The notes beneath the pieces are model-generated. The model ran no database searches. It was not told where the DNA came from and was given only the letters and a program-made list of their open reading frames with translations. The position numbers and the translations under genes were made by a program. From Squalus acanthias (lineage: Eukaryota), in contig CM059452.1 in the NCBI GenBank assembly GCA_030390025.1, positions 9,114,001 through 9,178,000 on the forward strand: a stretch of DNA of 64,000 nt. Direction: 5' to 3'. This document shows, in pieces, positions 269 through 57,036 of this stretch. Every line of letters starts with the position of its first letter. Position 1 is the stretch's first letter.

Positions 269-580
269 CCGGAGATCTGGAAATGTTTCGGCTTTGGGTG
301 ACCCCTTGATGAGAGACCTGGCAGGTATAGACCGAGCCAGCGAACCATTCCCCGGCGGGGAATGTCAGCCGACTGGTCGCCGAGAAGTTCCCGTTCACTT
401 CAAAGACGGGAGAGGTGACGAAGCCCGAATCCATGAGTTGTCCATTCTTCAGCCAATTCACGGTCATTGAGTTTGGACGGAAATCGATGATTGAACACAC
501 GGCGGTTGCAGACCTGCTGCTGATGATTTCTTCACTGGAACTCAGGGTGAGGATCACAGTTGGATGATGTACCACACGAT
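269..580 (-). CDS. IGHM: Immunoglobulin heavy chain constant exon CH2 (IgM-type, Cmu2)
   Basis: C1-set domain (D)[18 protein letters not shown]...VCSIIDFRP...WLKNG...SATSRLT...YTCQVSHQG...SRNISRSP with canonical C-W-C. Acceptor TTGCAG at 586-581, donor GTAAG at 268-264, 312 nt, phase 1/1. Closely resembles shark IgM CH2 as recalled. Confidence 0.93.
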
Positions 581-599
581 CTGCAAGAAAATACATTTT

Positions 600-2305
600 A
601 TTGGGATTATTTGTTGCAATCCAAACAATTAAGAATTGTAAAGTGTTTTTTTACATAGAATCTACAACACAGAAACAGGCCACTCGGCCCAACAGGTCGG
701 TGTTTATGCTCCACATGAGCCTCCTCTCTCCCTACTTCATCTCCCTCATCAACATAACCTTCTATTCATTTCTCCCTCCTGTACCTATCTAGATTCCCCT
801 GAAACACATCTATGCTGTTTGCCTCAACCACTCCATGTGGTAGCGAGTTCCACATTCTACCCACTCTCTGGGTAAAGAAGTTTCTCCTGAATTCCCTATT
901 GATTTATTAGTGATTATCTTATATTTATGGCCCCTAGTATCGGGCTCCTCCTCAAGCAGAAATATTGTCGCTATATCTAACCTTTCAACCCCCTTCATAA
1001 TTTTAAAGACCTCTATTCGGTCAACCCACAGACTTCTCTTTTCTAGAAAAAAGATCCCAAACCCGTTCAATCATTCCTGACAGTTACAATTTTTCTTTCT
1101 GGTATCGTCCTTGTAAATCTTTTTTGCACTTCTCCAGTGCCTCTGTATCATTCTTATAATATGGAGACCAGACCTGTACACAGTACACTAAGTGTGATAT
1201 GGAAACCAAAACTATAGGCAGTACACTCAGTGTTATATGGAGACCAGGCCTGTACACAGCAATCTTTGTGTGATATGGAGACCAGACCTCTACTCAGCAA
1301 TCTATGTGTGATATGGAGACCAGACCTCTACTCAGCAATCTTTGTGTGATATGGAGACCAGACCTCTACTCAGCAATCTATGTGTGATATGGAGACCAGA
1401 CCTGTACACAGTACTCTAAGTGTGATATGGAGACCAGACCTGTGCACAGTACTCTAAGTGTGATATGGATACCCGACCTGTGCACAGTGCTCTAAGTGTG
1501 ATATGGAGACCAGACCTGTGCACAGTGCTCTAAGTGTGATATGGATACCCGACCTGTGCACAGTGCTCTAAGTGTGATATGGAGACCAGACCTGTGCACA
1601 GCACTCTCAGTGTGATATGGAGACCAGACCTGTGCACAGTGCTCTAAGTGTGATATGGAGACCAGACCTGTGGACAGTGCTCTAAGTGTGATATGGAGAC
1701 CAGACCTGTGGACAGTGCTCTAAGTGTGATATGGAGACCAGACCTGTGGACAGTGCTCTAAGTGTGATATGGAGCCCAGACCTGTGCACAGTACTCTAAG
1801 TGTGATATGGAGATCAGACCTGTGCACAGCACTCTGTGTGATATGGAGACCAGACCTGTACACAGTGCTCTAAGTGTGATATGGAGACCAGACCTGTACA
1901 CAGTACTCTAAGTGTGATATGGAGACCAGACCTGTACACAGTGCTCTAAGTGTGATATGGAGACCAGACCTGTACACAGTGCTCTAAGTGTGATATGGAG
2001 ACCAGACCTGTACACAGTACTCTAAGTGTGATATGGAGACCAGACCTGTACACAGTACTCTAAGTGTGATATGGAGACCAGACCTGTGCACAGTACTCTA
2101 AGTGTGATATGGAGACCAGACCTGTGCACAGTGCTCTAAGTGTGATATGGAGACCAGACCTGTACACAGTACTCTAAGTGTGATATGGAGACCAGACCTG
2201 TACACAGTGCTCTAAGTGTGATATGGAGACCAGACCTGTACACAGTACTCTAAGTCTGGTCTAACCAAAGTTGTATAGAAGTTGAACATAACTTCTCTGC
2301 TTTTC
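600..2305 (-). mobile_element. CR1-clade LINE 3' fragment in the CH1-CH2 intron, interrupted by an internal minisatellite expansion
   Basis: Degenerate ORF2 C-terminus (DRIEVFKIMKG..., TRGHKYKI) and CR1-type 3' UTR near 650-700; LINE sequence resumes after the array at about 2256. Boundaries approximate. Confidence 0.75.
1160..2255. repeat. 38-bp tandem minisatellite, about 28-29 copies (GATATGGAGACCAGACCTGTACACAGTACTCTAAGTGT)
   Basis: Period read directly, e.g. units starting at 1861 and 1899. Confidence 0.95.
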
Positions 2306-2336
2306 ACAGTTTCCCCCTGTATCCCACAACACTAAC

Positions 2337-2636
2337 CTGGCATTTTGACGCTCCAGTCCGACCCACTTCGTCGAACCTGGCAGTAGATGGCGCTGCTCCC
2401 CACCTCTGACTCGGTGATGGTTAACTGGCTGCTCAGGGTGTAGGTTCCCTGCTTGTTGAACACTGACGGGTAGGTCTTCAATCCAGTGGTGATCGGCTCT
2501 TTATCTTTACTCCAGGAAAGGCTGGTGATTTCCGGGAAGTAGTCCATCGCCAAACAGCCGTACGTGACGGGGCCGCCGGTGTTGGGTTGTTCACAGGAGG
2601 AGAGCAGGGCGTAGAGGGTGGGAGGAGACTGTGTCG
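2337..2636 (-). CDS. IGHM: Immunoglobulin heavy chain constant exon CH1 (IgM-type, Cmu1)
   Basis: (A)[89 protein letters not shown]. Acceptor TTCCCAG ends at 2637, donor GTTAGT at 2336, 300 nt, phase 1/1. Retains the N-terminal Cys expected for light-chain linkage. Confidence 0.95.
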
Positions 2637-3084
2637 CTGGGAAAGAATGGCCAATTGAACAAGTTAGACTCTGTAATCCGTGCTTATAACATAACCAAAC
2701 AACTCGAAATGTGACTACAGGATGAACTAATTCCATCATTTGCCGATCAAAACCTAGATCAGCATTTGAGTTTCTGTGAGTTGTGAGACCCGACGTGAAA
2801 TGCCTTCATGTGACTCCAGTCTTGTACATAAGAAAAGTCAGGAGTCTGAAAGGGGCATTCTGTCCATGAGGCCCCTTTATACCGAGTGAATGCCGGAATA
2901 TTGTATCGTGGACTTCCTCCAGCTCTTGATCCCCTGTTATGGAACACTCCCCTCATTCCTCAACCACTTTCACATTAGATTCTTTCACATTCTGTCCACT
3001 GAGCTCCTCCCTACATCCTTTTGCTGTCAGCCTCTTATTATCAGCACAGAATCAGGCCATTCCATGATATCAAAGTGTCGTCAT

Positions 3085-3290
3085 CTCTCCATTGTAAGAT
3101 GCTGCCTTAAAACCTACCTCTTTGACCAAGCTTTTGGTCAACTGTCAGAGTAACTACCAACCATACTAAAGAATAAAATGATATCTCCTTATGTGGCTCG
3201 GTGTCAGATTGTATCTGCTGACGCTCCTGTGAATCGTCTTGGGACGTTTTACTACGTTAAAGGCGCTATATAAATGCAAGTTGTTGTTTT
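3085..3290 (+). mobile_element. L2-like LINE 3' end fragment
   Basis: LKTYLFDQAF-type ORF end followed by a 3' tail ...GGGACGTTTTACTACGTTAAAGGCGCTATATAAATGCAAG(TTG)n. Confidence 0.65.
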
Positions 3291-4429
3291 CAGGGGATAG
3301 ACTTGTTTGAATAGCGGTGGGATTAGTTCTCCTAATCACACAACTCCTACAGCTAGATCTACTAGTTGTATTACCTTTAAAACAAATCCCAGCATGTTTA
3401 TAGAGCATGACCAGAATTATAAAATAATACAACTTTACAGCACAGAAGGAGGCTATTCGGCCAATCACGCCTCTGAAAGATCTCTCCACCAATCCCGTGC
3501 ACCTTCCAATTCCCAATCTTCTCAACTGTGCAATTTTATCGAGCTATTATGGAGTCTGCATGCAGCCCTCTTTCTGATAGGACATCCCATGTCCAGCAGC
3601 CCCCTGTGTAGAAAAGTAGAATAATACCCTCTCCCTTCATTCTGTTGCTGCTGATTTTCAATCAGTGCCATTTACTCACCAACTCACCGACCCGGGGAAA
3701 TATGTTTCCCGAATCCCTTCATAAAACCCTTCATAATTCCAAACCCCTCTATCAGACCTCATCTAAATCTTCTTTGTTCCCATGACAATAAAGGACGTTT
3801 ACAATAAATGGTTGAAGTCTCCTTTAAAATGTGAGCGGAATAATTTAGCGCACAGATTTGAATAGGGAACTTTTGCACAGCCTGGTTTCTAAGATTCAAG
3901 CTTTAGATGAATCGGGATTGATTCGAGTCTCTCTCTTTCCTTCTCAGAATTGGAGGAAGAGCGATGCAGTGTGACTTGTGCTCTATCCCATTCTACTGAA
4001 TGGATGTCTCCTGACTTTCCTCCTCCCACTCACTCAATTAAATAATCCGAATTAATTACAATTCCCAAAGCCGGTTATATGGAACGATGCTCTTTAAATG
4101 CTCCATTTCATTTTCCAAATTACTTTCCAACCTCCCACCAGTGAGAACAGGCGCTGCTTTCTGGGTCGTTACAGTCACTTCTTGTTGCTGTTTGTACCGA
4201 ACATAATCTAAACATCGGGACAGGTTTCTTCTCTAAATATCTAATATTGGCAATCCTTAAACATTATAAATGGATTGGTTATCAGCGGGTTCTATGCAAG
4301 GAAGGACCAACAGTAACTAATGTGCTGACTGCTGATATGGGTAACTCTGCCTTCTGGTTTGTGCGGATAACTCAAACACCTGCGGCTTATTGGTCAGATA
4401 CTGAAAGCTCGGTCTACAGTGTGAAGTAA

Positions 4430-5590
4430 CAGAGAGGGTTGATGATGGTGTTGCAATAGATATTGTACACATAGCCTTTCAAATGGCATTTTATAAAGTA
4501 TCTCATAAAAGACTTATTCGGAAAATAGAAACACATTAAAGGATGGAGGTAACTTGGGTATGTAATTGGCTGAGGGAGAGGAGGCAGAGAGTAGTGGTGA
4601 ACGGATGTTTTTCTGACTGGCGAGAAGTATGCAGTGGGGTCCCCCTTGGGTCGGTATTAGGACCATTGCTTTTCCTGTTTTATATATAAATTACCTGGAC
4701 TTGTTTATAGGGAGTACAGTTTCCAAGTTCGCGAATGATGCAAAACTTGGCAACGCAGTAACTCGGGAGGAGGATATCAGCGGACTTCAGGAGGACAGAG
4801 ACAGACTGGTGAAATGGGCAGACATGTGGCTGATGCAATTTAATGCAGATAAGTGTGAAATGATGCACTTTGGGAGGAACAACAGGGAGAGACAGCATAA
4901 TCTAACTGGCACTATTTTGAGGGGGATGCAAGAGCAGGGGGACCTGGGGAGCTTATTCTCAAATCTGTGAAGATGGCAGGGCAAGTTGATCAGGTGGTTA
5001 CGGATGTGTGTGGGATACTTGCCATTGTCAAAGGAGCATTGAATACAAAAAAGGAGGAAGTCCTGCTAAACAATTACAAATCACTGGTTAGGCATCAGCC
5101 GGAGTAGTGTATACAATTCTGACACCACAATTTAGGAAGGATGACAAGGCCTTGGAGAGGGTACAGAGGAGGTTGACCAGGATGATACCACGGATGAGAG
5201 ACTTCAGCTATGTGGAGAGATTGGATAAGCTGGGATTGTTCCTTGGAGCAGAAAAGGTTAAGGGGAGACCTAATAGAGGTGTTCAAAATTGTGAGAGGTT
5301 TTGTCAGAGCAAGTCGGGAGAAACGGTTTCTTCTGGCGAGTATGTCGGTAACCAAAGGTCACAGATTTAAAATAATTGGCAAAATATCTAGAGGGGAAAT
5401 GAGGCTCATTTTTTCAAACAGAGGGTTGTTAATTTCTGGAATGCACGAGGCAACTGGACATGTTCTTGAAGAGGACTCAGTGGAGGGTTACGAGGAAAAA
5501 GCTGGGATTTGATTGGACAGCTCTTTCAGAGCCAGCACAGGCAAGACGGGCCGAATGGCCCCTTCTGTGCTCTGAGATTCTGTGATTCTA
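4430..5590 (+). mobile_element. Degenerate CR1 LINE (RT and C-terminal fragment) in the J-C intron
   Basis: Frameshifted fragments LYINYLD, SKFANDAKLG, FNADKCEMMHFG, ALERVQRR, RLRGDLIEVFKI, plus a CR1-type 3' tail near 5540-5590. Confidence 0.85.
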
Positions 5591-6339
5591 CACGGCTCAG
5601 CGGAATTAGTTCTTCCCGATTTAATGGAAGGAAACGCTTCATAATGTTGAACACCTCTATCAGATCTATTTTATTGTTTGTTATAATGCAAGAGGATGTT
5701 TAAAATAAAGGAACTGAGGAATTTGACACAAATGATTCAATCGGATACCGTCACAGAGTCTTAAAGCTTATTGTGAATGACGACTCATCGCAGGCTGACT
5801 GTTTCTCTTTAAATGTTTCACAGAGGTGCGGCTCAGTGACTGTGAGCCTTGTGCTGTGACCCAGTCCAATAGCTGCACCTCACCCGAGTTTGTCCCTGCC
5901 TGTTACCTTTTTAAAAAACAATTGAACGAAATAATGCTTTCAAACATAAGGTTCCCAACATGGTTATTTGGAGCGGGAGTCTCGACATTCTCCATTTAAA
6001 TTCTCAAAATAACTCCCAGCCTCCCATCAGATCAGAACAGGCGCTGCTTTCTGGAGCGTTACCGTCACTTCCTGAAACTGTTTGTTCTGAAAGTGAGCTC
6101 AGGATCAGGCCAATCTCATTCAATCATTATCTGATACTCAAAATGTTTAAAGTTTATCAATTCATTAAAAATTGGGCAGTTTTATTTGCAATAAGGTTAA
6201 ACTCAATTAATGCGCGGTTGTTTCATCGGAGCAATGGAAAGTTTTATTTTTATATATCTGGCTCGGAAACTCACACTTTATTAGTTGGATGCACATTAAG
6301 GTTCCTTGAACAACACGGGACAAAGCACTCACAGATCTG

Positions 6340-7445
6340 TTACAGTACAGATACAGAGTAAAGCTCCCTCTGCACTGCCCTGCCATACGCTGTACCCTCA
6401 GGTATAGGAAGGGATTGATTCCGAGCAACACCAAGTCTCCACAGCACTGTCAAACACTCCGGGTAAGGCACCGCACTGGTTAAATACAGAGTAAAGCTCC
6501 AACTACATTGCACAATCAAACACTCCCAGGGCAGGTACAACATGGGCATGATACAGAGTAAATTCTCCCTCTACACTGAACCATCAAAGATTCACGGGGC
6601 ATAACAGCACGGGTTAGATACAGAGTAAAGCTCCCTCTACACTGTCCCATAAAACACTCCCAGGGCAGCTACAGCACGGGTTAGATACAGAGTAAAGCTC
6701 CCTCTACACTGTCCCATTAAACAATCCCAGGACAGGTACAGCGCAGGTTAGATACAGAGTAAAGCTCCCTCTACACTGTCCCATCAAACACTCCCAGGAC
6801 AGGTACAGCACAGGTTAGATACAGAGTAAAGCTCCCTCTACACTGACCCATCAAACACTCCCAGGGCAGGTACGGCACGGGTTAGAAACTGATTAAAGCT
6901 CCTTCTACACTGTCACATCAAACACTCCCAGGGCAGGTACAGCACGGGTTAGATACAGAGTAAAGCTCCCTCTACACTGTCCCATCAAACACTCCCAGGA
7001 CAGGTACAGCACGGGTTAGATACAGAGTAAAGCTCCCTCTAAACTGTCCCATCAAACACTCCCAGGGCAGGTACAGCACGGATTAGATGCAGAGTAAAGC
7101 TCCCTCTACACTGTCCCATCAAGCACTCCCAGGACAGGTACAGCACGGGTTAGATACAGAGTAAAGCTCCCTCTACACTGTCCCATCAAACACTCCCAGG
7201 GCAGGTACAGCACGGGTTAGATACAGAGTAAAGCTCCCTCTACACTGTCCCATCAAACACTCCCAGGGCAGGTACAGCACGGGTTAGATACAGAGTAAAG
7301 CTCCCTCTACACTGTCCCATCAAACACTCCCAGGGCAGGTACAGCACGGGTTAGATGCAGAGTAAAGCTCCCTCTACACTGTCCAATCAAACACTCCCAG
7401 GGCAGGTACGGCACGGGTTAGAAACTGATTAAAGCTCCTTCTACA
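6340..7445. repeat. 67-bp satellite array (about 16 units) inside the IgH J-C intron
   Basis: Unit GGTTAGATACAGAGTAAAGCTCCCTCTACACTGTCCCATCAAACACTCCCAGGGCAGGTACAGCACG; period 67 (7141 to 7208). Confidence 0.95.
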
Positions 7446-9609
7446 GTCTGCCAGACGTGTTTCTGAAATGCTCCTTCTGAATGTCACAAACTGGGTTACT
7501 GAGTCCAGTTCGGAGGCGCCTCCTCAAACTTAAAGTCAAACTATCGCATTTCTCACAGATACAAGCTTCTGAAATAAGTGAGTCGAATTGTACTCCATGA
7601 AACACAAGAGAACAAACCAGCAGGTTTACAACCAGTCAGGAGGACTCCTGATTCTCACACAGTGAGCAGGCGCACAGAAACAGAACAGACACAAACGGTG
7701 CAACAATCGTGCTCTCAGCAGATAGATCTCTTCAATCTGTCAATTTCAATGAAGCTGATTTCTAATTGATCTCTTGTCAATTTCCGACCACCTCAAGTCT
7801 GCACGTTTTTTGAAATTAAACTGATATTAATTTGAAAAACTCTCTTCGACTTCCAACCATTTCTCCCTCCCTGTCTACAATCTTACAAACAAATAAGATT
7901 TAGCTTCCCTGAAAACAAGTTTACTGAAATAATTCACATTCCAGGGTAATTTGCTGCATATAACAGGGACTCCGTGACAGAGTAAGAATTTAATGAACTA
8001 GGAACCACTGGTTTAATATAATTTCATAATTAAATATAACCGGTAAAATCATCGATACAAAACACGAAGTTAATTCATTAAAATCTGCGGCGACACCTTC
8101 TCGAGCTGAGCACAGCTGAGTAAGACATGTATTGTTTCTAAATTAATTTTAGACATAATTTAAAATTCTCTCCAACACTTGAGATTTTACAGTAACTGTA
8201 ATCCTGTCCAGTATAGAACGCAATTGTGGGAGGTCATTTATGTTTAATTAATTCGCACTCACGTTATATTCTAAGTTAATATTGATGTTAGCTGCATTAT
8301 ATTAAAATTAGTTGATATTAATTTTAATCCTGTTTCTGCCTGGTAACTTTTGAACTTATAGGGTTTCAATTAAATTAACATGACACTTATCAATATTAAA
8401 ATATTAAAAATCATATTAATAGATAAAGACATTCAGACAAATATATTACTTTTACTTAAATCAAATCACATTTGAATAGTTTAAAATGGTCACGAACTTC
8501 TAATACATTCCCGCTCTCTATCTACACACTTGTAAACTCTGCATGTTTCTGAACTCTCTGATACAACATAAACTCCATCTTTTCTCATAGTGGATTTCAC
8601 ATGATGGATTTAGGAGTGGACTATTTTAAATACTTCAAAGTCTGGCCGTGGTCACATCTCACTAACTACTGATGGACTGTGACACCATGTGTTTACTAAA
8701 GCAGGGTCTCGAGTTTAAACATTGTCCTCAATCTTAACTATAAATACTATTTTCGTGAATTAAAAGACAACCGGCCAGTTTGCAGTCAGTAACAGAGACT
8801 CCGCTATTTAATAACACAAACAATCTTTTTATACTTTACTCCCGTAATTCACACAATGCCCGTAAATTAATTATTAAATATATTCTGCTATTTATTGAAA
8901 ATCAGTTCCAGAATGATCAATGTAAAACTGGCGGAGAACAAATCAATCAGACCATCTGCGACACTGAAATTTAATGAGCAGATGGAGGAGAGATTTTGTT
9001 GATCAATTTAACATTAATGAGAATTAAACATAACTCTCAGATGTAATCTGTTCACTGTCTATAATTCTATCCCGTATACAGCACAGCTATGGGAGACAGG
9101 ATGTTGTTATTAAATTCAAAACTAATATTAACCTTTTGTAATTTAATTAATCTGCTTGAATGTCAATGGGTTATTTGTCTGTCTCCAGCCTTACGCAGTC
9201 TGCACCTTCCGTGAATTTAAATAGAATCATATGAACAATTCTTTGACTGCCAGCGACCGCTCAGCCTATGATCTTACAAACTGTTTAAGATTAGTTTAGT
9301 GATAATTGTCTCGCTATCAAACAACAAATAATATTGAAGGAATAACATGGTTTCCGCTGCACAGTAAGAATTTAATAACCCGGCAGATTTATTACATTTA
9401 CAAACTGCAATTTATACTCGCATTTAATGCATAATTAAATACAATCTGTCATTCATCTGTGTGAAACAGGGAGATAACAATTAATTTCAAACCCCTCATT
9501 AAACTGAACACTGCGGTGGAATCAGTCTGCTGTTATTAAAATAATTTCAGACATAATCAGAAATTGTCTCCAGCCTCTAAAATTCTCCGCTCAGGTTAAT
9601 TGTGACCAG

Positions 9610-10890
9610 TGCACAGCAGAATTGTGGAAGGCGAATAATGTTTAATACATTAATATTAATACTGCAACATATTTAGTGATATTGGGCAATATTACCGCAT
9701 TCTAATCGTTTGAGTTATATTAATTTAACTCTCCTTCAACCTGCAAATTGTTAATTATATAATTCGTAATTCAGTAACATTTCACCTATTAAATGTGAGC
9801 ACCGTAAACCATAGATTAACAGTTGAATCTGTAACTCTCACTTAAATAAAAACATGCATTAAATTATTTTTAAATGATTTTTGATTTATAAAACCTACTT
9901 GTTGTCTGCCTACAATCATCTTTCAAACAGTTTAAACAGATCAGAAAACCTGCAGCAGTTCGATGTCACCGAGATTAAACATTGCAGAAACTCCAAACAG
10001 TTTCACAAACTTTAGTTATTCAAAGTAACCCAGGCACACACTCTCCTCAGCAGATAAACAGCAAATCACATCACTGAGGGGCTGAATCCCGCAACAGAAC
10101 GTTTTGTGGAGAAGCAGCTTCATTCTATAAACCCTTTCAGCAGAATCAAATGTAACATTGCAAAAAAATCTCAATACAGAATCCAGCGAACCCATCTATC
10201 ACTGAACGAATTAATTATTGAAATAAACAAAAATATAAAATAATGACAGCAGAATTGTGAGTAGACGGATCATGGTTAATAAATTAATATTGATATAGCA
10301 TATTGTTGTAATATTGAGTGATATTACTACATATGATAATTTAATTTATATTAATTTAAATCTGATTCAGGCTACAAATTTGTTAATTATGTAGTTATAA
10401 ATTACAGTAACATTTCACATATTGAATATGACCGTTGGTGAACATTAGATTAATAGATGACAATGTAAATATCACAAATAAAAATACACTAAAATATCTT
10501 AAGATTATTTTTGACTGCTAAAGCTTTCTGTTTTCTGCCTACAATCTTATTTCAAACACATTTAGTCACATAATGTTTACATTTGATCAGAAAACCTACA
10601 ACCATTGGATGTCACCGAGATTAAACATTGTAGAAACTCCAAACAGTTCAACAACCGTTGGGTATTTAAAGTAACCCCGGCTCACAGTCTCATCAGCAGA
10701 TAAACACCAAATCACATCAATCAGGGGCTCAATCCCTCAACAACACGTTTTCTGAAGAAACTGTTTAAATCTCTTATCCCTTTGCAGCAGAATCAAATGA
10801 AACATTGCAAAAAATCTCAATACAGAATCCACCGAACCCAAGTTTCAGTGAATGAATGAATTATTGAAATAAACAGAAATATAAAATAAA
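9610..10890. repeat. Diverged AT-rich ~640-bp tandem duplication adjacent to JH, with an older related copy at about 7860-8480 matching 9260-9900
   Basis: Shared anchors GCAGAATTGTG (9616 and 10249), GATGTCACCGAGATTAAACATTG (about 9962 and 10609), AAAAAATCTCAATACAGAATCCA (about 10162 and 10809). Confidence 0.8.
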
Positions 10891-10932
10891 GGCACAAATA
10901 CAACAGTTGCTGAAAGAGTGAATGTTTCTTAC

Positions 10933-10980
10933 CTGCAGTCACCGTCACCATGGTGCCTTGTCCCCAGTAGTCCATGGCGT
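10933..10980 (-). CDS. IGHJ: IgH joining (JH) segment AMDYWGQGTMVTVTA
   Basis: WGxG motif; donor G|GTAAG at 10933/10932 in phase 1, splicing in frame to CH1 (G+CG = Ala). Confidence 0.96.
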
Positions 10981-11019
10981 CACAGTGTTACATTCCCCGG
11001 GCTGGGTCACACAATAACC
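10981..11019 (-). other. JH recombination signal sequence, 23-bp spacer
   Basis: On the + strand: CACAGTG (10981-10987), 23 nt, ACAATAACC (11011-11019). Confidence 0.93.
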
Positions 11020-11343
11020 GGCTCTGTGTAAAACAGACAGAAATCCAACATTAGTTTAAATATTCACATCCCAGAGACAAAGTAAAGTCACGATGGATCT
11101 TCATAAAATGATAAATGTGTCAATGGATACTTTTCACTCTTTATAAATTCCCTGATGTTTTATATTTCACAGAGTAACCCATGAACAGTTATTGAAAGCA
11201 CCAACTGATCAATGATTAATTATCACAGTTTATCCATGTTAAACTGTGCTAGTGGACAGTGCTGGACACAAATAGGACTTCACTGCATCTACAGTTGGAT
11301 TGTGAAAGCGACACTGACCCAGACTCACTCAATTAGTGCTGAG

Positions 11344-11412
11344 GGTTTTTGTATTGACAGTAACTGCTGTGCCACCCAGTGTACCACAGTGAGACACGCC
11401 GTGCCAAATACT
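11344..11412 (-). other. DH2 segment (coding 11372-11384, GTACACTGGGTGG) flanked by 12/12 RSS
   Basis: On the + strand: GGTTTTTGT (11344-52), 12 nt, TGCTGTG (11365-71), core, CACAGTG (11385-91), 12 nt, CCAAATACT (11404-12). Confidence 0.93.
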
Positions 11413-11632
11413 CCGGCGGACTGTTAACTGTAAAATACAGAGATGAAATTCCACAGCGCTCTCAAAACCCTGATTCCGACTCCCCTAAGAGTGAATCAGT
11501 GAGATATTTCAGTTTGTGCTGGTCATTTTACAAAGCTATATTACTTCTACCCATTATTTGCATTCAAGCCTCATTTTCTTCGACGCTCCTGCCGTGGCAG
11601 TGATCGCAGGTGTGAGCAAACTCGCTGTCTGG

Positions 11633-11712
11633 GGTTTTTGTATGAGGAGCTCGCTCTGTACAGCACCGTGACCCCCTGTAGTACCACAGTGACAGGAACC
11701 CGCACAAATACT
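11633..11712 (-). other. DH1 segment (coding 11671-11684, GTACTACAGGGGGT) flanked by 12 (V side) and 22 (J side) RSS
   Basis: On the + strand: GGTTTTTGT (11633-41), 22 nt, CACCGTG (11664-70), core, CACAGTG (11685-91), 12 nt, ACAAATACT (11704-12). Confidence 0.93.
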
Positions 11713-12062
11713 GCACTCACTCTCTGATTAACGCTGTTAGAGATAAAATCGCTCAACCAATAAAAGCTTTTAGCAGATTTTGATTATAATCTATTCATGA
11801 ATTTTTCTCAGTAGGGCAGAATTGGACCAAAATTATGCCCATACATACAATATTAAAGCTTTCATTGAATCCTCGTTGCCAGTCCCGGGCACTGTAAACA
11901 GTCACCATGGATACAAACTTAGTTAATGTGTATTTTATTCTTAGCCAGTTTATTGCTGTAGCAAATACATCCTTCCCATCTCGGTTAAAACACACCTCTT
12001 GTTATATTTTACACCATTACTGACCTAGGATTCGATGGAAGTTGCTGCAATTGCTCTCGTTC

Positions 12063-12101
12063 GGTTTCTGTACGAGCCCTGGACTTGTTCGGGTCGCTGT
12101 G
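12063..12101 (-). other. VH recombination signal sequence, 23-bp spacer
   Basis: Minus strand CACAGCG, 23 nt, ACAGAAACC directly after the YYCARD codons. Confidence 0.92.
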
Positions 12102-12404
12102 GGTCTCTTGCACAGTAATACATGGCGGTGTCTTCGGTTCTCAGATTATTGATCTCGATATAGGTTGTGGAAGATGTTTTTGAAGGGACGATCCGACCTT
12201 CGACTCCAGGCGCGTAATAATTGGTATCCGACGGACTTCTGTAAGCAAGCAGCCACTCCAGCCCCTTCCCGGGAACTTGTTTCACCCAGCTCATATAGTA
12301 GCTGCCCAGAGTGAACCCGCTCACTGAACAGGACAGTTTGTGAGATTCTCCGGGCTTCTTCGACACAGAAGCCGACTGGGTCAGCACGATATCGGACCGG
12401 ACAT
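12102..12404 (-). CDS. IGHV: IgH variable exon (open, IgW-like framework)
   Basis: (Y)VRS DIVLTQSASVSKKPGESHKLSCSVSGFTLGSYYMSWVKQVPGKGLEWLLAYRSPSDTNYYAPGVEGRIVPSKTSSTTYIEINNLRTEDTAMYYCARD. Acceptor TGACAG ends at 12405; no stop codons. Confidence 0.95.
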
Positions 12405-12525
12405 CTGTCAGTGAATGAAAAAAATGCAATTACATTGGAGAACATTCACATCAATGAATAGAAATTAAAACACAATATCTGAAGCTGTCTTCTATTGTGT
12501 CACTAAAGCAGTGAGGAATACTCAC

Positions 12526-12571
12526 AGGCGAAGCAAGCCAGTAACAAACAGAGGCACGGGGCAAGTCCCAT
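12526..12571 (-). CDS. IGHV: IgH V leader exon MGLAPCLCLLLACFA
   Basis: ATG at 12571, hydrophobic signal peptide, phase-1 donor T|GTGAGT at 12526/12525; a 121-bp intron joins it in frame to the V exon. Confidence 0.92.
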
Positions 12572-13258: not shown

Positions 13259-14619
13259 TCCGATCGGCAACTGCTTGTGGGATGGAAGGGAAAAGGACAC
13301 AAGAGTTGATATTTGTCCCGGTTTTACAGGAGGGAAAGCGAAGTTTGGGAATAACGTCACATATTGTCAGATCGCATCCATCGCGCCTGCGCAGCTCCGC
13401 ACCTAATACAATCATCCCTGCCTCAATCGGGCACTGGATCTCAGTTCACCTGTGTGAAGACCGTCACTTTATTTCACTCTGAACAATTCTAAGTTGTAAA
13501 AGTTAAGATCTACACCGATCTGTGTGGGTGTGAGGAGACCGCACGGTCCGCCCCAAGCTGTCTGGGTGAGAATTCAATCACGCTGCCTGCCTTTCTAATC
13601 GCAGTTACATTACTGTCCCGCCGACCATGGAAATGTCCTCAACACTGCAGATTAAACAGTATCGATCAAAGTGAACCGATTAAAGGAGCAATTACAGTCG
13701 TAGATTTGGGATATTACTAGTTTTAGGTAACATTTTTAATTTGCACCAGCAAAGGGAACTCATTAAATTAAATGCTTTAATTGAGTGTCACCATCGTGCG
13801 GTTTGATTCAGTGCTGACCTTAACCCAGCTGTGGCCAGCTGCTCTGATGCCAAGTGCACGTCTCTCACAGCTGGACCGGAGCGTGTTTCATTTTAAAATA
13901 TAAAGGCTGTCAATGACAATTAGACCAAAACCTCAGTGAGTAACTAGAATTCCCGGTCAGAGGCTCCATCACTGGGACAGTAACTCGGCAGACTGCAGGT
14001 CATGGGGTCAAGGACAAAATTACCAATGGAACCAAGAACTGTTATATCGGTTCTTTATATCTGTGCCTGTCTCTGTTTATGTGATTCCAGCACAGCTTCC
14101 ATTGCTTTCTGCAGGATTGTAATAGAACATCGCCTTCAATCAGAGGAGAATTGTCTTTTAATGATGAATGTCTTAAACGCTTTCATTGCTCTAATCGTAT
14201 TTTATTCAGTTCTGCACATGTCATACACGAAACATCATATTTTTTAAGGTCATGCCATAAGAAATATATTTTCGATGGACGTTGTCTAATCATTCAGTAG
14301 TTGAAGAGTTAAATTCCACTTCGCTCCCACCCATACTCAGTCCATATCTCTCCCACACAGTTTGTGAGAGAAATCAATCATTTCCCCCTCAGGGAGGGGC
14401 GAGAACTCACAATGTAACTTACAGGAAACATCTGTTGGTTCTGTGCAGAAAAATCAACGCGCTGTTTCCAGCCCGCTGATCAGAGATAGAAAGCCAACTA
14501 CAACCCACCTATCATGAGTGGAACCTCTTTGGACACACACCTGCCCAACAATAATATACCCATACAGGTAAAACACAACCCCATTGGTTATATGGAGTTT
14601 CATTTCAAATCACTTGATA

Positions 14620-15140
14620 ACCCTGGGAATGATTCTGAGAGCCTGGGACCTATCTGTCACACCAGTGTGTACAAACCCTGGGAATGATGCCCAGAGTCTG
14701 GGACCTATCTGTCACACCAGAATGCACAAACCGTGGGAATGATTCCCAGAGCCTGGGACCTATCCGACACACCAGAGAGCACAAACCCTGGGAATGATTC
14801 TCAGAGCCTGGGGCCTACCTGACACACCAGAGAGCACAAACCCAGGAGAATGATTCCCAGAGTCTGGAATCTATATGACACACCAGAGAGCACAAACCCT
14901 GGGAATGATTCCCAGAGTCTGGAATCTATATGACACACCAGAGAGCACAAACCCTGGGAATGATTCCCAGAGTCTGGAATCTATATGACACACCAGAGAG
15001 CACAAACCCTGGGAATGATTCCCAGAGTCTGGAATCTATATGACACACCAGAGAGCACAAACCCTTATGGGACCTATCTGACACACCACAATGCACAGAC
15101 ACTGGAAAATATTCTGAGAGTTAGGGACCTATCTGACACA
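14620..15140. repeat. 55-bp tandem repeat, about 9-10 copies, with internal palindrome CTGGGAA-TGA-TTCCCAG
   Basis: Period 55 (14934 to 14989). Confidence 0.9.
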
Positions 15141-56836: not shown

Positions 56837-57036
56837 NNNNNNNNNNNNNNNNNNNNNNNNNNNNNNNNNNNNNNNNNNNNNNNNNNNNNNNNNNNNNNNN
56901 NNNNNNNNNNNNNNNNNNNNNNNNNNNNNNNNNNNNNNNNNNNNNNNNNNNNNNNNNNNNNNNNNNNNNNNNNNNNNNNNNNNNNNNNNNNNNNNNNNNN
57001 NNNNNNNNNNNNNNNNNNNNNNNNNNNNNNNNNNNN
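56837..57036. other. Assembly gap (200 N)
   Basis: Run of N; the round size suggests a scaffolding placeholder. Confidence 0.98.

Follow-up and report, generated by a model that had tools for sequence, protein, structure and literature searches.

The window analysed here is a stretch of 64,000 nucleotides from Squalus acanthias (NCBI GenBank assembly GCA_030390025.1, contig CM059452.1, positions 9,114,001 to 9,178,000 of the forward strand), and its minus strand carries a complete, unrearranged immunoglobulin M (IgM) minicluster in the order leader (L)-V-D1-D2-J-Cµ1-Cµ2, with a V gene of the family known as VHII or λ1113. One V, two D and one J with compatible recombination signal sequences (RSS) are followed by the C exons, the reading frames are open and the splice sites canonical, which bears out the intact germline L-V-D-D-J-CH1-CH2 cluster described in an earlier note made from the sequence. 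In a motif scan of the whole 64 kb, V, J and CH1 of this type each turned up once. The leader comprises 19 residues, the last four of them encoded in the V exon. Cµ3, Cµ4 with the secretory tail and the transmembrane (TM) exon lie 1.9-6.6 kb past the left end of the window (contig C29 of the genome, G000, at ~9107442-9112106) and are open where aligned; the sole run of Ns in the window (56837-57036) is far from the cluster. The features are as follows.

12571-12526, minus strand: leader exon of VHII type, its splice seen in the putative RNA runs X9 and X11
12405-12525, minus strand: leader intron, 121 bp, GT-AG
12404-12102, minus strand: VH exon of the λ1113/VHII family, open frame
12101-12063, minus strand: V 3' RSS with 23-bp spacer, unrearranged
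11727-12062, minus strand: V-D1 spacer, VHII-specific, a diverged homologue (~57%) of the IgM VHI spacer, without IgW homology
11713-11726, minus strand: edge of the D-J-Cµ block that is near-identical between VHI and VHII clusters, where identity steps from ~55% to 97%
11633-11712, minus strand: D1 (11684-11671) with 12-bp 5' RSS and 22-bp 3' RSS
11344-11412, minus strand: D2 (11384-11372) with a 12-bp RSS on each side
10933-11019, minus strand: J RSS with 23-bp spacer (11019-10981) and JH of IgM type (10980-10933)
2636-2337, minus strand: Cµ1 (CH1) exon, canonical splice sites
580-269, minus strand: Cµ2 (CH2) exon, canonical splice sites
14304-14551, minus strand: upstream conserved element, 68% identical to a similarly placed element upstream of VHI clusters

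The constant region is that of IgM. The CH1 shares 75% identity with horn-shark IgM C and 29-38% with seven IgW chains, and in a CH1 protein tree, in which a misplaced sturgeon CH1 on a long branch was disregarded, IgM and IgW separated with support of 100/100 and the window CH1 fell on the IgM side. CH1-4, the secretory tail and the TM exon are together 70-83% identical to horn-shark IgM C, and the J is unlike the IgW J of contig C284, so that the cluster has neither the C exons nor the J of an IgW locus and the assignment of D, J and C to the IgM type by the earlier note stands. The IgW CH1 of this genome shares 89 of 95 residues with the Squalus acanthias IgW. The window V has its own D-J-Cµ, unlike the tandem V genes without one that are associated with T-cell receptor δ (TCRδ). 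A search of the PDB found mammalian-type antibodies only, and a search of 50% clusters found unnamed VH only and was not used.

The leader and V, described by the earlier note as IgW-like, indeed proved so at the protein level. The window V is 61-70% identical in amino acids to nine IgW V regions vs 47-59% to 22 IgM V regions of the VHI type, the intact IgW V of the same genome being 63% identical, and 13 of the 19 leader residues are as in Squalus IgW vs eight of 19 as in horn-shark IgM VHI. Alignment of the leader intron gave z values of 5.6-5.7 to IgW vs 2.1-2.7 to VHI. After removal of 12 near-duplicate rows from a first V tree, with the broken IgW V left out, VHII formed a clade (97/96) in a 60-row tree whose sister was horn-shark W26 plus a white-shark IgW V (95/80), and in the 31 rows chosen for approximately unbiased (AU) tests VHII fell within a 97/93 clade alongside six IgW V from five shark genera. 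Separate trees of V and CH1, as the earlier note had proposed, thus place the V among IgW V and the CH1 with IgM.

The V belongs to a family that is already known. In the available part of Hinds-Frey 1993 (PMC2191167), horn-shark λ1113 is a germline cluster whose V is ~61% identical to the main VHI family, with a 3-nt insertion in complementarity-determining region (CDR) 2 and a 6-nt deletion in framework region (FR) 3, combined with D, J and CH1 segments of the ordinary kind and matched by three cDNAs; it is reported there as single-copy (monotypic), with an inverted D1-D2 spacer, and the inversion is suggested to protect it from homogenising correction. Compared by eye with the λ1113 V printed in Fig. 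5 of that paper (one base illegible), the translated window V is identical at 81 of 96 residues, ungapped, which exceeds the paper's family threshold of >70% identity as amino acids, the threshold itself being set for nucleotides. A tblastn comparison with VHI showed the diagnostic one-codon CDR2 insertion and two-codon FR3 deletion. The catshark gene scyTo_0014239 shares 86% identity with the window V. An IgM C region on a contig of equal size (159436) bears the following locus tag, scyTo_0014240; the linkage of V to Cµ in this species is drawn from the consecutive tags and the equal contig size. Horn shark, catshark and dogfish together span the deepest split among living sharks, of more than 200 million years. 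Work by Rumfelt in 2004 reportedly describes an orthologue, in the nurse shark, of the monotypic VH of the horn shark and is said to include trees of IgM and IgW VH; the IgW likeness of VHII may therefore already be in print.

In the Squalus genome the family has expanded. A genome-wide V search, with 150 of 884 candidates scored, found at least 12 VHII V matches 74-100% identical to the window V, some of which may be alleles or haplotigs, beside ~33 VHI V matches counted by hand. An IgM CH1 lies 7-10 kb downstream on the same strand in 10 of the 12 and an IgW CH1 in none; of the remaining pair, one is cut off by an assembly gap behind D2, and the 30 kb fetched for the other showed no CH1. Only the window cluster and one other (L003) are unrearranged among the 12; one is joined V-D1, in four the joining extends through D2, and five carry a complete V-D-J join. 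The germline-joined clusters (L002, L004-L012) lie on contigs C29, C449, C559, C988 and C1142, and of the five with a complete join four keep the reading frame through J, the fifth (L012) having a stop and having lost the second cysteine. The other unrearranged cluster (L043, L044 and L109; C29 ~5.803-5.829 Mb) has a 500-N gap after D2, beyond which more than 20 kb are dominated by a 67-bp tandem repeat. The V type is thus a published IgM VH family, λ1113/VHII (PMC2191167, in the part available), with at least 12 copies here, a circumstance that the earlier note had itself named as telling against its proposal of a heritable hybrid cluster.

That proposal placed a break between IgW and IgM sequence in the V-D1 interval (11713-12062), and the break did not hold. 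From the nonamer onward the V-D1 spacer is collinear with VHI spacers, with alignment scores of 52 and 62 against two of them (maxima of 32 and 38 in 100 shuffles), and against both IgW loci it scored 27, at chance level (shuffle maxima 31 and 34). On the other side, 1.9-2.2 kb before the V exon, lies the element with 68% identity to one upstream of five VHI clusters; no copy was found in the ~12 kb that precede either IgW V. Genome-wide the element returned 16 matches, of which 12 adjoin a VHII V; four near-identical copies without a V behind them lie on C988 (positions 4300, 50165, 93714 and 359360; L100-L103). The IgW-like leader-V tract is therefore flanked by IgM sequence on both sides, which fits a conversion of leader and V and not a crossover within 11713-12062. 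Promoter-region alignments were weak and uninformative (z of 2-5 in all pairs), and repeats were the only homology between VHII and IgW upstream regions.

A sharp identity step, of the kind that the earlier note proposed to look for with sliding windows, does exist. At ~11726 identity to VHI clusters rises from ~55% to 97%, separating VHII-specific sequence from a D-J-Cµ shared among IgM clusters instead of IgW from IgM; within this D-J-Cµ, identity between clusters of the two V families reaches 97-99%. Contigs from the sequencing runs show loose ends at 11726. The window CH1 is 97.7-99% identical to the CH1 of six of 10 VHI clusters tested and 88-90% identical to the other four, VHII-linked and VHI-linked CH1 are intermixed in the tree (monophyly of VHII-linked CH1 rejected, p=4e-46), and on C988 a VHII CH1 pairs with the CH1 of a neighbouring VHI cluster with support of 97/98. 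From the intermixing and the step together we infer that D-J-Cµ has been exchanged or corrected between IgM clusters regardless of V family. The step is thus the edge of IgM-IgM homogenisation and not an IgW-IgM fusion. Since the D1-D2 spacer of the window is not inverted and VHII nevertheless persists, inversion is not required for the survival of VHII.

Several repeats were noted around the cluster. A tandem array of a 67-bp unit occupies the J-C intron (window ~6450-7450) and occurs also in all five other VHII clusters checked; arrays of a ~38-bp unit between CH1 and CH2 (~1170-2260) and of a ~55-bp unit upstream of V (~14620-15140) accompany it. The J-C intron also holds an old duplication of ~640 bp (~9600-10250 and 10250-10890), 77% identical and common to VHI and VHII clusters.

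How an IgW-like V came to sit in an IgM cluster can be explained in several ways. A recent, lineage-specific hybrid formed by one IgW x IgM crossover in the V-D1 spacer would account for an IgW-like leader and V, an IgM D-J-C and the step at ~11726, and it is highly improbable: the window V is 63% identical in amino acids to the genome's intact IgW V vs 84-86% to horn-shark and catshark VHII, the spacer is IgM-derived, and the copies have diverged by up to 26%. The cross-species VHII orthologues refute it. What survives of the heritable hybrid proposed in the earlier note is an ancient transfer of a V from IgW to IgM, the likeliest origin of the window V; a one-off event does not agree with at least 12 copies and with relatives in horn shark and catshark. 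Its main competitor holds that VHII is an ancient IgM paralogue retaining the ancestral VH type while VHI diverged fast, so that no V moved from IgW, or one moved from IgM to IgW. We consider this less probable but a serious alternative, for both flanks are homologous to IgM at 57-68%, close to the 66-70% DNA identity of the V to VHI, the VHI stem is long (0.35) with VHI itself among the IgW V, and in the 60-row tree bony-fish VH fall among the IgW V as well. It has to contend with the position of VHII inside the 97/93 clade of IgW V, with an AU test (31 rows) that weakly rejected VHII+VHI monophyly (p=0.043), and with the leader residues and leader-intron scores given above. IgW+VHII was not rejected (p=0.35), and monophyly of IgW alone was rejected (p=0.016); the V does group with IgW V, these are paraphyletic, and the direction of transfer is not fixed by the tree.

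A series of observations leaves an IgW origin insecure. At the DNA level the gap is modest, the V being 73-74% identical to IgW vs 66-70% to VHI and the leader exon 63% vs 59-61%, and in 60-base windows the IgW excess is confined to the end of the intron and FR1, with CDR2-FR3 about equal. The V RSS spacers of IgW and VHI are near-identical (87%) and that of VHII differs from both (69-72%; L031, L033, L045-L049). The V tree has only 99 columns, and p=0.043 is marginal. VHI too lies among the IgW V (sister to ray IgW, 84/83), and because IgW V are paraphyletic 'IgW-like' may mean 'ancestral'. Between an IgW origin of the VHII V and ancestral retention, we place the former at a little over even odds.

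The joining of V to D1 by misassembly would be the least probable explanation of all. The locus is repetitive and no contig spans the whole stretch; the identical V-spacer-D1 junction recurs in the second locus (L003), contigs of X13 and X7, runs that carry the labels of two other organisms, cross 11726 and extend over 34 bases of the D1 side, and horn-shark λ1113 was cloned with a VHII V on IgM-type D-J-C, as the available part of PMC2191167 has it.

Expression of VHII is suggested by putative RNA runs. Two runs of one study, X9 and X11, show exact splicing of the VHII leader intron; coverage of the VHII exon comes from these two and from X13. The leader-V splice, varied V-J joints and J-Cµ1 ends were each seen, on separate contigs. 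Tempering this, no single contig in these runs carried both Cµ and a VHII-specific V, the V-J joints, whose short sides span only 22-39 bases, could derive from VHI, and the RNA status of the runs is a program guess, none of the runs being registered as RNA. V-D1-D2-J joining within the cluster, followed by splicing to Cµ, would proceed as in any IgM gene, with RAG rearrangement under the 12/23 rule, which the available part of the λ1113 study (PMC2191167) establishes for cDNAs in the horn shark.

We are fairly confident that the window holds an intact, unrearranged IgM minicluster with a VHII V that likely rearranges and splices as IgM, and whose leader and V were likely copied from IgW in a shark ancestor. 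On this account an IgM cluster in the ancestor of modern sharks would have acquired the leader and V of an IgW cluster, and the D-J-Cµ downstream of ~11726 may since have been renewed by ongoing gene conversion or unequal crossing-over between IgM clusters in the germline, with the diverged V-side cassette left in place. A wider reading, which we offer tentatively and hold to be slightly less probable than its negation, takes VHII as a fossil of germline isotype exchange: an IgW leader-V tract that entered an IgM cluster by conversion ahead of the main shark split and persisted as a portable cassette, re-paired with D-J-Cµ. VHII would then have grown to roughly one in four of the IgM V genes detected in the genome, and re-pairing with current D-J-Cµ would recur at a border that stays fixed, 14 bp to the outside of the D1 nonamer.

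On the IgW side, searches of this genome found only two V (one broken) for five CH1. Three IgW CH1-CH2 sets on C284 (~651-710 kb; L035-L040) had no V detected in the ~8-18 kb upstream, and they may be V-less, or have a V that is more distant or among those unscored. The intact IgW V (L031, C284:799000-805000) is followed by a 23-spacer RSS and then by one 12-spacer RSS only, which sits on a fused D-J-like segment; the arrangement resembles a germline D-J join. Elsewhere, C911 carries a tandem array of ~30 V exons at ~4 kb spacing (~373-520 kb; L075-L078), 37-44% identical to the window V. Of four exons sampled from it, three fall with IgM VHI, on a long branch, and the array is probably one of TCRδ-associated Ig-like V.

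The cluster itself is ordinary, its V family having been known for 30 years. What is new here is probably that VHII has expanded, that it nests within IgW V and that it persists with D1-D2 not inverted; the titles and abstracts of the literature searched, which did not include the most relevant papers, contained no statement on an IgW affinity or expansion of VHII. VHII is not always a single-copy oddity, with at least 12 matches vs ~33 ordinary V, and in shark IgM clusters the history of the V region differs from that of the C region, with a mappable border. The fossil reading, if true, would overturn the 1993 idea that D1-D2 inversion shields VHII. An IgW origin, if true, would represent a datable germline V transfer between isotypes and would bear on V trading among cluster-type loci before the translocon arose; the available part of PMC12227049 proposes V exchange between linked loci in evolution in general terms.

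Horn-shark λ1113 shares with the window the V-D1-D2-J-Cµ layout, D and J of ordinary IgM type and the CDR2 and FR3 indels. It is reported as single-copy, whereas this genome holds at least 12 VHII copies, 10 of the 12 germline-joined, and its D1-D2 spacer is inverted, whereas that of the window lies in the VHI orientation, collinear with VHI and 87-100% identical in 60-base windows (λ1113 as given in the available part of PMC2191167). Inversion is a trait of the horn-shark cluster and not of the V family. Ordinary IgM VHI miniclusters (horn-shark λ1403 type; L014-L030 here) have the same RSS order, 23, 12-D1-22, 12-D2-12, 23, and in the genome's closest clusters D, J, the J-C intron and Cµ are 93-99% identical to the window; V-D1 spacer and upstream element are homologous, and the leader, intron and V are of another family. 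Shark IgW V (horn-shark W26, Squalus acanthias IgW and Carcharhinus plumbeus IgW) resemble the window V in leader and FR1 motifs, the short FR3, amino-acid identity and a common tree clade, but in its J, D layout, spacer and every C exon the window cluster differs from IgW. Somatic inter-cluster switching in the nurse shark (Zhu 2012; Zhang 2013) likewise yields an IgW V on an IgM C and acts on rearranged genes in B cells, according to the part available of the review PMC4279169, whereas in the window all RSS are unrearranged and the V/C pairing is inherited and common to several shark orders.

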